Below, in pieces: positions 9,392 to 35,959 of a stretch of DNA of 64,000 nucleotides. The translations under genes and the position numbers were made by a program. Position 1 is the stretch's first letter, and each line of letters opens with the position of its first letter. The notes under the pieces were generated by a model that worked only from the letters and a program-made list of their open reading frames with translations, searched no databases and was not told the origin of the DNA. Location: the NCBI GenBank assembly GCA_044361365.1, contig JBIKIW010000001.1, positions 2,501-66,500 on the forward strand, in the 5' to 3' direction. The stretch is from Limisphaerales bacterium. GTDB lineage: Bacteria; Patescibacteriota; JACMRA01.

Positions 9392-11128
9392 ATGTATCGA
9401 CCAAATACTTATAATCAAAACCCTAATTGGCAAGGCGACCCCTACAATCAAAATAATGGATATTACCCACCTCAAAATAATAATGGATACAATCCTTACC
9501 AAAATCATCCTAGTTTTCAACAATATTATCCTCAGAATTTATCTCAGCCTCAGCAGCAAAACAATTCTTTTAGAAACTTTAACCAACAACTACAACCTGC
9601 TTCAGTAATTACCCAAGAAGAGTTAATTGCTAATCATTTAGAGCAAACCAGAAAACAAAGAAAATACAGACAGGTTCCGATCAGAACTAAAGTGGTAGAA
9701 GATACACATCAAGAATTACAGCGAAGGCTTTTGGGCAAAGTGGTTGAAAAGTCAGCTAACTCAACTAACAGTAGTATTGTTCCTGTAAATATTTACGTTC
9801 ATAAAAATCAACCTGTAAGTCCTGTTCAAAGTGAAGCTAGGAAAGAGATTAAAACAAACCCATCTTTTAAAAATTCACAACCTTTTACCTCTCAGCAATC
9901 TGCTATTAATCCAACCTTAAACAACACTGATAATAAAAGTTTTGCTTCCAAGATTGAATCAGATAATGAAATTTTAAAATCTTTTAGTATTAAAAAGAAG
10001 CCCAATTTTTCAATTTATCAAAAAGATTTCGAACCGAACAAGGCTTCAGCCAAAACCTCTAAGGTTTCTCAAACTCATTCTAAATTTCCTAAAAAAATCT
10101 CAAAAAGAAGAACTAAAGTTGCTGCTATAATTTCTATTTTTTTGTTATCAGCTAGTATTTTTGGGATAAGCGGTTTTAGTTATTATCAAAAATTCTTTAA
10201 ACAAACACAACCAACAGTTGCTGGAGCTATGGAGGTAGCCAAGCCAAAAGTTGTTAATTATGATGAATACAAAACTTGGATCGAGTCTAAAAACGAAGGT
10301 AGCTTTTCTGAACCAGATTTAGATTTAGATAAAGATCAGCTTAGCAATTATGAAGAATTTTTAATTAGTTCAAATCCTATTTCAGCCAATACTTGTGATC
10401 CAAAAACAAGTGATAGTAAAAATTTGTTTCAACTTATAAACCCAGCTACTTGTAAGCCAATTGACTTGAAAGATGAAAACCAAGCTAAACTCTTCGGTAC
10501 TCTTTTGAGTGTTTCGGATAGTAGCCAGCGTTTTGTAGAAAGTTTTGTTGAAGATTCTAAAGCTAATTCTACAGTTACAAACAGTTCAGTTTTAGATTTA
10601 TTTGGTGTAAAAGAGTATTCTGAAATAGATAAAATTACCAACGAAAGTTTGGATCAAAAAGCCACTCAGGAAAACCTTAAGAAAGATTACTTAAAATCTA
10701 TTCAAAAAACTAAAGATTATATTGATAAGTACAGATCTTACGAAACATATGATAGAAATTATGATTCTCCAGTGCATCCAGCAGTGTATTTAGAAATGTC
10801 CATAAAGTACGGAACTCCACTTAAATACATGTTGGCCATTGCTCGTACTGAAAGTCGTTTTGGTACTGATAGATACACAAATAGTGGAGCCTTAACTAGA
10901 CCAGGTCAGTTTCAAAATATCTACTCCATGGGTCTTACTGATAGCGGAAGTAACTTTGGATTTATGGCTTGGGAAGAAGGGGTTGAGTCTTTTGGTAAGT
11001 GGTATAAGAAATTTCAAGACAGGGGTGTAGGGGATTGTAATAAATGGAGAATATATAATCCAAATGGTGACTATTGTTCCAAGATAGAAAATTTGGCTGC
11101 CGAGATTGAAGTTTTTTTAAAGTCTTAA
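9392..11128 (+). CDS. Membrane protein with a Q/N/P-rich N-terminal tail and a C-terminal lytic-transglycosylase-like domain
   Basis: The start was moved to the ATG at 9392, because the ORF-track start at 9203 overlaps the divergent methyltransferase gene. TM helix AAIISIFLLSASIFGISGF. C-terminal LAIARTESRFG resembles an SLT catalytic E-S motif. Confidence 0.55.
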   Translation: MYRPNTYNQNPNWQGDPYNQNNGYYPPQNNNGYNPYQNHPSFQQYYPQNLSQPQQQNNSFRNFNQQLQPASVITQEELIANHLEQTRKQRKYRQVPIRTKVVEDTHQELQRRLLGKVVEKSANSTNSSIVPVNIYVHKNQPVSPVQSEARKEIKTNPSFKNSQPFTSQQSAINPTLNNTDNKSFASKIESDNEILKSFSIKKKPNFSIYQKDFEPNKASAKTSKVSQTHSKFPKKISKRRTKVAAIISIFLLSASIFGISGFSYYQKFFKQTQPTVAGAMEVAKPKVVNYDEYKTWIESKNEGSFSEPDLDLDKDQLSNYEEFLISSNPISANTCDPKTSDSKNLFQLINPATCKPIDLKDENQAKLFGTLLSVSDSSQRFVESFVEDSKANSTVTNSSVLDLFGVKEYSEIDKITNESLDQKATQENLKKDYLKSIQKTKDYIDKYRSYETYDRNYDSPVHPAVYLEMSIKYGTPLKYMLAIARTESRFGTDRYTNSGALTRPGQFQNIYSMGLTDSGSNFGFMAWEEGVESFGKWYKKFQDRGVGDCNKWRIYNPNGDYCSKIENLAAEIEVFLKS

Positions 11129-11200: not shown

Positions 11201-11230
11201 AAATAAAAAATTCCTCTAAATTAAGAGGAA
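11201..11230 (-). terminator. Candidate terminator downstream of the minus-strand tRNA cluster
   Basis: Hairpin ttcctct-aaatta-agaggaa (11211-11230). On the minus strand it is followed by ttttttattt. Confidence 0.4.
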
Positions 11231-11247
11231 AACATTTTGAATTTATT

Positions 11248-11335
11248 TGGTGGGTATGGGTGGATTTGAACCACCGACCAGTCGCTTTGCGACTCTGCTA
11301 CTTCGTATCAGGCAGACTTATGAGCTAAGTTCTGC
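11248..11335 (-). pseudogene. Partial tRNA-like copy with no 5' half: anticodon loop with CAU, a 32-nt insertion, then T arm and acceptor 3' strand plus CCA
   Basis: 11248-11279 is identical to the 3' 32 nt of the adjacent tRNA. The sense strand reads CTCATAAGTCTGC, then a 32-nt insert with hairpin AGTCGC-AAA-GCGACT, then GGTCGGTGGTTCAAATCCACCCATACCCACCA. No GGGTATG 5' acceptor strand lies upstream. Confidence 0.5.
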
Positions 11336-11410
11336 TATTTATGGTCGAACAAAGTCCGATCCTTCTCAGCATTCACTTCGTTATGCTTTCTCTCAATCGC
11401 CACTTGGCTT

Positions 11411-11486
11411 TGGTGGGTATGGGTGGATTTGAACCACCGACCGCAGACTTATAAGATCTGTGCTCTAACCCCTGAGCTACATACCC
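11411..11486 (-). tRNA. tRNA-Ile (anticodon UAU), CCA encoded
   Basis: Sense strand: GGGTATG-TA-GCTC-AGGGGTTA-GAGC-A-CAGAT-CTTATAA-GTCTG-CGGTC-GGTGG-TTCAAAT-CCACC-CATACCC-A-CCA. This gives a clean cloverleaf of 76 nt. Confidence 0.75.
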
Positions 11487-11564: not shown

Positions 11565-12197
11565 TTACTCTTTTGTTTCTATATATTCAAACGGGAAAGG
11601 ATCTCCCCAATATCTTTGTCTGCTAAACACCCAATCTCGGAATTTAAAATTAATCTGCTTTTCACCCTTTCCAAGGTCAACCAATTTATTAGTAATTTTT
11701 TGCTTTGCTTCTTTTCCATCTAAACCACTAAACTCACCAGAGTCGAATAAAATTCCATATTTGGTAAAAATATCTCCATTTTTTAACTTTTCCTCACAGT
11801 TTTCTCTTGGCTTTCCGTCTTCACTAATAGTTTCTTTGAGAGGAATGTTGTATTTTAAAGCAAATTCTACGTCTCTTTCGTCGTGAGCATCTGCCATAAC
11901 TACCCCAGTTCCGTAATTAGCTAAAACAAAATCGGCAATCCAAACAGGAATTTTATCTCCTCGTAGTGGGTGTTTAACAAAACTACCTGTGAAGACTCCA
12001 GTTTTTTCTTTGTTAATTTGCCTCTCTCGTTCACTTTTGGCTTTGGCTTTTTGGATGTATTTTTCAACCTCTTGCCTAAATTCTGGTTTGGTTATCTCTA
12101 AAACCATCGGGTGTTCTGGAGCCATTACTAAAAATGTGGCTGCATAAATAGTATCAACTCGGGTAGTGAAAGTGGAAAGTTTGGTAGGTTTTGACAT
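11565..12197 (-). CDS. leuS: Leucyl-tRNA synthetase fragment (CP1 editing domain through the RDW..SRQRYWG strand only)
   Basis: TTRVDTIYAATFLVMAPEHP, IPVWIADFVLANYGTGVVMADAHDERDVEFA and FKFRDWVFSRQRYWGDPFP align to the LeuRS CP1 region. The HIGH, KMSKS and anticodon-binding parts are absent. The ORF has its own ATG and stop. Confidence 0.85.
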   Translation of the reverse strand: MSKPTKLSTFTTRVDTIYAATFLVMAPEHPMVLEITKPEFRQEVEKYIQKAKAKSERERQINKEKTGVFTGSFVKHPLRGDKIPVWIADFVLANYGTGVVMADAHDERDVEFALKYNIPLKETISEDGKPRENCEEKLKNGDIFTKYGILFDSGEFSGLDGKEAKQKITNKLVDLGKGEKQINFKFRDWVFSRQRYWGDPFPFEYIETKE

Positions 12198-28233: not shown

Positions 28234-28866
28234 TCAAATTTTTGCAAACTGCTCTTTACCTAGTTTTTCCAAAACATCAAAATCAGTTTTTGTGCCTGAC
28301 TGAGTATTTGTAATAAAAACATTTTCTTTTATTGCCATTATAAAAACGGGCTTTTCAGGTTCAATTATAAACCCAATACATTTTTCACCTACATCGCATG
28401 GTAATTCTTGTGCGGTTGGCACAGCCTTTTTAACCTCGCTTTTCGCATCATTTAATTGTAGTGATAGATCCGAACCTTCTTTATAGACTGATACTGATTG
28501 TTCAACCACTGAGTACAATCCTTGTACTTTTTCACTTGTACTTACGGTTGTAGTATAACCTTTTAGCCAATAATCTTTTGCTCCCTGTGAAATCTCGTCT
28601 TTGCTTCTTGGAGAATTAGAGACCAAGAAAGTATAATCTTTAAGCCCACCTTCTTTTTCATTAACAATTATTTTTTTTGGGTCTCTAGCTTCCACATTAA
28701 TTTTTGACGAACTGCTAGACGTAGCAACTGATGCTTTATCATCTTTTTTAGCGATATTTTGTTGGCTGTAAAAATAGATACCCCCACCAGCAACGCTGAT
28801 AAACAAAACCACACCTAAGATAATAACTATTATTTTATTCATAAATTGCAACAAATTTTCAAACAC
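28234..28866 (-). CDS. Hypothetical secreted or anchored protein
   Basis: N-terminal hydrophobic anchor. The ATG at 28842 is a plausible alternative start. Confidence 0.55.
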   Translation of the reverse strand: MFENLLQFMNKIIVIILGVVLFISVAGGGIYFYSQQNIAKKDDKASVATSSSSSKINVEARDPKKIIVNEKEGGLKDYTFLVSNSPRSKDEISQGAKDYWLKGYTTTVSTSEKVQGLYSVVEQSVSVYKEGSDLSLQLNDAKSEVKKAVPTAQELPCDVGEKCIGFIIEPEKPVFIMAIKENVFITNTQSGTKTDFDVLEKLGKEQFAKI

Positions 28867-35471: not shown

Positions 35472-35959
35472 GGGGATGACCTAGTTTTGACAGTTGGATA
35501 TTGGCTAAAACATACTAGATAGTTTTGCTTATTTTTTCTATAAAAACGAGTAGCACTTTTAAATGCAAACAATTCAACTTCTGCCTTTGAGAAAATCGGA
35601 GGACGTATCGCACAAGCTTTAGGTCTCGAGATCACTCAGGGCGTACCCCAAACAGCAATCGCCTAGTTTAGTTGCCACTTATTGGCAGAATATCCCTCCG
35701 GATAAAATCTAAACATGGGGTACACAATTACTTTTATATTGGATTTGGCGTAAGAGTAAATTGTAGAAAAACAACACAAATTCCTTGGTTAAGTTGTTAG
35801 CGGGCTAACCGAGTACAATGCTAACAGTGTGCTTAAAACTTTTTTGATTTGGTTTGAGATCACACTTAAAACAATTAAATCAAATATGCGTCTAGTTTGA
35901 AAAAGTGTTTTAGACCCAAATCCAATTGGACGGGGGTGCAACTCCCCCCATCTCCACCA
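35472..35959 (+). ncRNA. ssrA: tmRNA (SsrA)
   Basis: The 5' GGGGATG pairs with the 3' CATCTCC, including the G3-U pair, followed by ACCA. The T-arm-like GGACGGGGGTGCAACTCCCCCC precedes it. A candidate tag frame starts at GCA 35565. The length of 488 nt is at the long end for tmRNA. Confidence 0.85.

Follow-up and report, generated by a model that had tools for sequence, protein, structure and literature searches.

A partial copy of the tRNA 3' end in the putative structured trailer of tRNA-Ile(UAU) in a Patescibacteria genome

The tRNA-linked repeats (TLRs) of E. coli are elements whose 3' ends are identical over 18–19 bp to the 3' end of the upstream tRNA; their function is unknown (Stenum et al. 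2021, PMC8144298). As cited in PMC8144298, they were described by Egan & Landy 1978 and by Rudd 1999. The element reported here lies directly downstream of a tRNA-Ile(UAU) gene and shares the TLR arrangement: it is structured, it is putatively part of the same operon, and it closes with a repeat of that gene's 3' end, identical over 34 of 34 nt with CCA included.

The locus also differs from E. coli TLRs in several respects. The identity block is 34 nt long rather than 18–19 nt, and the element is present as a single copy, whereas one to five stand at each E. coli locus. Its interior is visibly derived from the anticodon arm of the tRNA itself, with added hairpins, and a separate dispersed repeat unit precedes the copy. 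The host is without RNase E/G, and the processing logic of E. coli is not directly transferable. No sequence similarity to TLRs and no Rfam RtT match at E<=1 are found, so that the likeness is one of architecture only.

A second known arrangement of this shape is the pair of attL/attR repeats flanking an integrated element. Williams is said to have sorted integrative elements in tRNA genes into sublocation classes in 2002. As in attL/attR repeats, the 3' part of the tRNA is directly repeated, the gene being intact at one repeat and reduced to a fragment without its 5' part at the other. Unlike them, the two repeats described here come with no integrase and no island, they stand 129 nt apart, and a native trailer repeat lies between them.

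The tRNA-Ile(UAU) locus and its duplicated 3' end

The window (the whole stretch of 64,000 nt that was analyzed) belongs to a Patescibacteria metagenome-assembled genome of 1.475 Mb in 77 contigs, with 34% G+C and 88% completeness. This genome has 40 tRNA genes, and a duplicated end is found at tRNA-Ile(UAU) only. ARAGORN and Rfam both recognize the intact gene that the sequence-only reading had placed on the minus strand, and its body resembles that of the genome's tRNA-Ile(GAU). The genes around it are ordinary and encode a LeuRS-CP1 fragment, a DNA methylase, SecA, an unknown 578-aa protein (orf578), and RsmF. The features of the locus are listed below from high to low coordinates, which is the direction of transcription of the tRNA.

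11565–12197: free-standing LeuRS CP1 (editing-domain) gene
11411–11486, minus strand: intact tRNA-Ile(UAU), 76 nt, CCA encoded (ARAGORN, tRNA-Ile(tat); Rfam RF00005, 72.1 bits)
11342–11411, minus strand: one unit of a ~66-nt structured dispersed repeat (66–70 nt; covariance model R1, 74.2 bits)
11325–11341, minus strand: 17-nt linker TAAATAGCAGAACTTAG, predicted to pair through its GCAGA with the copy's TCTGC (sequence and fold)
11312–11333, minus strand: diverged copy of the anticodon arm, equivalent to tRNA gene positions 23–44, 17/22 ungapped (repeat search and position list)
11280–11311, minus strand: 32-nt insert CTGATACGAAGTAGCAGAGTCGCAAAGCGACT with two hairpins, CUGAUAC-GAA-GUAGCAG and AGUCGC-AAA-GCGACU (sequence and predicted fold)
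11246–11279, minus strand: 34-nt exact repeat of the tRNA from its variable loop through the T arm and acceptor 3' strand to CCA, followed by AA (repeat search)
11201–11230, minus strand: intrinsic terminator with a 7-bp stem and a T run
9392–11128: orf578 (orf591 of a sister species is 78% identical)

BLAST and a repeat search define an exact direct repeat in which 11246–11279 equals 11409–11442, with 163 nt from start to start and 129 nt separating the two copies. It consists of the last 32 nt of the tRNA and the next two A. The exact end repeat of 32 nt first read from the letters is therefore real, its length being 34 nt once these two extra A are counted.

The 32-nt insert sits at the junction between the anticodon stem and the variable loop, and no second copy of it is present elsewhere in the genome. 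Past this hairpin-bearing insert the similarity to the tRNA resumes in register, as had been proposed, with 17 of 22 matching positions at 11312–11333 (binomial P ~6e-6). The 22-nt match contains the exact 10-mer ATAAGTCTGC, and an equally good match arose in 94 of 20000 shuffles. The loop of the copy indeed reads CTCATAA, with CAT at 11322–11320. Five changes distinguish the copy from the tRNA in these 22 nt, namely C25A, A28T, G29T, T31G, and T34C. The substitutions A28T, G29T, and T31G hit the 5' strand of the copy's anticodon stem, and three of the five stem pairs are lost.

Divergence is thus distributed unevenly along the copy, with five differences in the 22 nt before the insert and none in the 34 nt after it (Fisher p = 0.007). 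Because of this unevenness, the terminal 34-nt block appears to be kept identical by some process, whether gene conversion, selection, or service as an att core.

The copy is not a tRNA. It lacks the 5' acceptor strand and the D arm, in keeping with the earlier description of a fragment without a 5' half, and no partner strand of the GGGTATG type is found upstream of it. Over the fragment 11246–11333, ARAGORN makes no tRNA call, introns allowed or not, and Rfam at E<=1 returns no tRNA match and only an 11-bit match to a tmRNA end. These searches rule out a complete non-canonical or intron-containing tRNA, a possibility that the sequence-only reading had itself raised against its interpretation. 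A nested insertion of one tRNA inside another was likewise discarded, as no 5' half is found upstream of the intact gene.

The copy is confined to one species and is missing from every other genus sampled. No significant 3'-end copy was detected in the other tRNA trailers of this genome or of G002, a genome of one related genus; only tRNA-Ile exceeds the controls, and the idea that trailers end in a tRNA-end copy as a general rule was rejected on that basis. Within the species, 11 independent assemblies (JGI, ENA, and Logan samples) share this 436-nt intergenic region with 0–3 differences and with unchanged gene spacing. These comprise nine independent assemblies and two further lineages, and were found through LeuRS-CP1 on many public contigs.

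A dispersed repeat unit at tRNA 3' ends

The unit that follows the intact gene has the layout AAAGCC-N4-GGCGAYTGAGAGAAG, hairpin 1, GAACAAGG, hairpin 2, and its first base here is A76 of tRNA-Ile(UAU). By the covariance model, this genome has 32 copies, G002 has 28, three other genomes have one or two, and 36 more have none. Within the family, expansion of the unit is seen in just two genera. Covariation is present in both hairpins: pairing holds in 95% of cells and double changes occur at 9 of 14 pairs, whereas slid alignments used as a control reach at most 41% paired. No Rfam family, ribozymes included, matches the unit at E<=1, and its exact consensus has no match in species-representative genomes.

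In this genome, units begin on the last base of the tRNA genes Ile-UAU, Lys-UUU, and Ala-GGC, and model matches in G002 do so at Lys-CUU, Leu-GAG, Leu-CAA, and Arg-GCG. Over both genera together, at least seven tRNA genes hence share their last base with the first base of a unit, and such starts are far commoner than expected by chance. At tRNA-Ile(UAU) of G002, only a degenerate unit start is present, with no model match. Because units habitually start on the last base of a tRNA, the sequence adjoining the intact gene at our locus would be the native trailer normal for this lineage and not island DNA.

A comparable position is taken by theta ribozymes, minimal HDV-like ribozymes that abut phage tRNA 3' ends (Kienbeck et al. 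2024, PMC10879173). The 66-nt unit resembles them in being small and structured, with its 5' edge at the tRNA 3' end. It differs in having no complement for a P1 helix and no Rfam ribozyme match, and in forming tandem arrays away from tRNAs. We rejected the assignment of the unit as an HDV-like or theta ribozyme, given that Rfam yields no ribozyme match and that no stretch of the consensus is complementary to the first 7 nt.

BOX elements of Streptococcus pneumoniae are modular repeats of the form boxA-boxB(n)-boxC. The unit family is similarly modular, with tandem middle units that vary in number, and is hairpin-forming, intergenic, and lineage-expanded. Its unit sequence is unrelated to that of BOX, and, unlike BOX, it has a strong tie to tRNA 3' ends.

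Units also stand in tandem arrays inside larger modular elements. In this genome, arrays are located at C1:137–203 and 1941–2008, C9:6680–6830, C15:17349–17766, C29:27396–27589, C45:23690–23824, C53:8340–8477 and 28685–28814, C65:4061–4200, and C66:287–426 (contig and positions). Arrays away from tRNAs open with TTGTCAAAGCC, and many arrays close in a conserved tail, AATTATAAATGGTTAATGG...GAGTTTGATCTGTAGCGGCGACCTCCGCGTCGCCATTG, with paired hairpins of the form GTAGAGGAGACC-N4-GGTCTCCAT after it.

At tRNA-Lys(UUU) (C15:17274–17560; locus L018:174–460), the gene is followed by a unit and then by a terminator beyond GGGGTCCACCAAAT. This motif lies 150–160 nt downstream of the tRNA and matches 9 of the last 11 nt of tRNA-Lys(UUU) and 10 of the last 10 nt of tRNA-Lys(CUU). 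Layout and spacing resemble those of the Ile locus, and the GGGGTCCACCAAAT match is at chance level in a control.

A candidate trailer and its competing origins

No terminator- or promoter-like site is found between tRNA-Ile(UAU) and the copy. Directly after the copy stands the intrinsic terminator, and no second terminator lies in the stretch from the tRNA to the convergent gene. Folding of the copy region predicts four hairpins in a row (z = -3.96; 1 of 200 shuffles as good), with the T arm and an unpaired ...CAUACCCACCA tail at the end. In this predicted fold, the anticodon arm of the copy is rearranged into a 9-bp hairpin, GCAGA-A-CUUA/UAAG-UCUGC, with a 5-nt loop, and three of the five substitutions create its CUUA/UAAG pairing. 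In the minimum-free-energy fold of the whole precursor, the 5' acceptor strand pairs with the distal copy, a trivial outcome because the two copies are identical.

These features are consistent with a co-transcribed, structured trailer of the TLR type, a reading to which we assign a probability of about 0.5. Co-transcription, processing of the trailer, and the cause of the identity are what we infer from the sequence. tRNA-Ile(UAU), a 163-nt structured trailer, and the intrinsic terminator would form one transcription unit. The first part of the trailer would be the lineage-specific ~66-nt unit, with its habitual start on the last base of a tRNA, and the second part a 5'-truncated, remodeled copy of tRNA positions 23–76.

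The copy may have arisen by local partial duplication of the 3' two-thirds of the tRNA within the trailer. Its interior would then have been free to change, the anticodon arm turning into another hairpin and two hairpins being inserted at the variable loop. Gene conversion between the terminal block and the tRNA, or selection to keep the 3' end tRNA-like, would have preserved the identity of this block. With an end of this kind, the trailer RNA could be cut and trimmed by the enzymes that mature tRNA 3' ends. The processing enzymes would probably differ from those of E. coli because the genome has RNase Y and RNase E/G is not found in it. Splicing that joins alternative 3' halves to the tRNA was discarded, since no bacterial mechanism for it is at hand and no group I intron features were found.

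As a TLR-type trailer, the locus would be a population-fixed example in a phylum far from E. coli, with its origin from the tRNA itself still visible. It would also be tied to a covarying repeat family, not described before, whose units adjoin the 3' ends of tRNAs in two genera. If such trailers are processed RNAs, they bear on the making of tRNA 3' ends in ultra-small, RNase-poor bacteria; if they are not, the locus is an ordinary duplication relic beside a selfish repeat.

A more speculative extension, which we regard as doubtful, is that the tRNA-abutting modules starting at A76 and the end copy together make up an RNA-level system in some Patescibacteria without RNase E/G. Such a system would define or protect tRNA 3' ends, or would yield stable trailer RNAs, matched to the tRNA end and matured by the tRNA 3'-end machinery. 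TLR-type elements would then be a widespread class and no enteric oddity.

The TLR reading is weakened by the fact that a single element is present here, no other tRNA trailer carrying a significant end copy. The strain polymorphism in the copy's T stem, described below, counts against it as well, and the uneven divergence would also fit the identity block of an att site. The sequence-only reading had seen in the duplicated tRNA 3' segment the scar of site-specific integration and excision. The duplicated segment is there, and no integrase, island, or viral counterpart accompanies it.

For the locus to be such a scar, the 34 nt would be the identity of attL and attR from an element with a tRNA-derived attP, and this element would have been lost by internal deletion, leaving 129 nt. 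The position of the direct repeat, spanning the 3' part of a tRNA gene and extending 2 nt beyond CCA, suits this proposal, as does its sharp edge, with perfect identity on one side against 77% on the other. A mobile-type DNA methylase is encoded two genes upstream, and the lack of conserved synteny with relatives implies that rearrangements have happened here.

Several observations nevertheless make an integration scar unlikely. There is no integrase or remnant of one nearby, and the only PF00589 gene of the genome is on another contig (C40). Just 129 nt lie between the repeats, with no foreign genes, and about half of this length is the native repeat unit. The first 66 nt are the same unit that trails other tRNA genes, and the ends of those genes are not duplicated. 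In IMG/VR, no match was found to either the 34-mer or the insert. A search with the gapped pattern of the fragment gave nothing relevant in species-representative genomes or metagenome contigs, the single metagenome match being an unrelated high-GC tRNA-Met. The proposal also needs two steps, integration and near-total internal deletion, with an end state common to all 11 strains. The larger island between the repeats that was to be looked for in relatives was not found; synteny with relatives is absent, and the 11 strains have the same structure.

The copy could instead be a plain decaying pseudogene, a partial or tandem tRNA duplicate in which the 5' part has been lost and the rest drifts, with the perfect identity over 34 nt due to chance or young age. 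The missing 5' half, the broken anticodon stem, the 32-nt insertion, and the restriction of the copy to one species are all as expected of such a remnant. A polymorphism among strains points the same way: GT>TC at 11274/11273, present in 3 of the 11 assemblies, removes two T-stem pairs of the copy, and because of it the whole T arm is not strictly constrained. The other variable site, G11403A, lies in a loop of the repeat unit.

Simple decay is nonetheless improbable in our judgment. The divergence is not uniform (5/22 against 0/34, p = 0.007), and in the predicted fold the substitutions build a new, stable hairpin instead of inflicting random damage. Variation is near zero over the 11 assemblies, and the last 27 nt of the copy are invariant, yet the overall divergence of the strains is also very low.

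Decoding of AUA and conservation across strains

AUA decoding by a tRNA-Ile(UAU) that does not depend on TilS is known in Mycoplasma mobile, Bifidobacterium, and Neorickettsia (Taniguchi et al. 2013, PMC3575796). As in those bacteria, UAU is encoded in the genome studied here, tilS is missing, and there is no third CAU tRNA. Unlike in those cases, the state, predicted from gene content, is a trait of the whole family, its order, and other Patescibacteria lineages.

The sequence-only reading had pointed to tilS and to further CAU tRNAs as the genes to look for. tilS (PF01171) was not found in this genome, which is 88% complete, nor in any of 26 relatives (25 from the family and one from the order), in a search that recovered 14 of 14 positive controls. 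The only two CAU tRNAs are of the initiator type and of the elongator Met type, and the isoleucine tRNAs are tRNA-Ile(GAU) and tRNA-Ile(UAU). Across 20+ related genomes, tRNA-Ile(UAU) is 85–99% identical, with TAT wherever the locus was read; the 11 relatives' loci that were read all hold the UAU tRNA at the same 85–99% identity. In other families of the phylum, genomes with tilS carry a CAU homologue and genomes without it carry UAU. ATA accounts for 31 of 204 Ile codons in five neighboring genes.

From this gene content, tRNA-Ile(UAU) is predicted to be the decoder of AUA, independent of TilS, and the UAU state appears old and clade-wide. Reading AUA through UAU, at first taken to be rare, is the rule in this lineage. 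A literature search returned, among its top results, no paper tying tilS loss to Patescibacteria.

This bears on the proposal that the UAU gene replaced a lysidine-dependent tRNA-Ile2(CAU) or a Met tRNA and that the copy is a fossil of the gene so replaced. Its CTCATAA loop invites that proposal, and the homologous tRNA does have CAU in the tilS-containing families of the phylum. tilS is absent, however, from 26/26 genomes of the family and order, with UAU where read, which would make the switch far older than a copy whose last 34 nt match the present gene exactly; the copy occurs in no other genus sampled. The 3' strand of the copy's anticodon stem, GTCTGC, is of the family's UAU type and unlike that of both Met tRNAs. 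The C34/T34 difference that had prompted the proposal is present; it is no lone telling difference, C34 being one of five changes in the 22 nt of a remodeled arm whose stem is broken.

Because the UAU state appears old and clade-wide, and the copy is confined to one species with an end identical to today's gene, a fossil of tRNA-Ile2(CAU) would be impossible, and the proposal as a whole, Met tRNA included, is very improbable. The CAU of the copy would thus carry no decoding meaning and be no relic of tRNA-Ile2(CAU). A "CAU fossil" of the switch from lysidine to UAU is not what the locus presents.

An assembly artefact, either a repeat-induced chimera or an unrolled bubble in this 77-contig metagenome-assembled genome, can be dismissed: the same 436-nt region and gene spacing recur in 11 independent assemblies, and the structure of the locus is therefore fixed in the species.

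No conserved synteny with relatives is observed, and both flanks occur in other contexts in the closest species found. In a sister species, CP1 is 93% and orf578 78% identical. CP1 homologues of ~200 aa with 93–52% identity are present in many assemblies (loci L061–L066 and L072). The context in the closest relative is ComM-CP1-tRNA-Tyr-tRNA-Gly-GrpE, and here it is methylase-CP1-tRNA-Ile.

One strain, L072, is a recombinant that diverges in the CP1 gene only. It combines a CP1 allele of the sister type with the tRNA-Ile trailer and orf578 of this species, which places the recombination within CP1. As a gauge of purifying selection on the trailer, L072 was set aside as uninformative, its differences lying in CP1.

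Elsewhere in the window, Rfam matches a tmRNA at 35472–35959 with 72.7 bits. The match spans 488 nt against a model of 374 positions, and ARAGORN reports no tmRNA in the window; this may be an insertion-bearing or otherwise unusual tmRNA. On contig C17 (4763–5969, minus strand), ARAGORN with introns allowed proposes a tRNA-Lys(ttt) with a 1115-nt intron; either the call is spurious or the tRNA gene is interrupted by an intron.

Finally, three independent assemblies of the sister species (loci L068, L069, and L070) stop exactly 93 nt past the stop codon of orf591. The common end point suggests an assembly-breaking repeat at the place where the present genome has the terminator and the tRNA-end copy.
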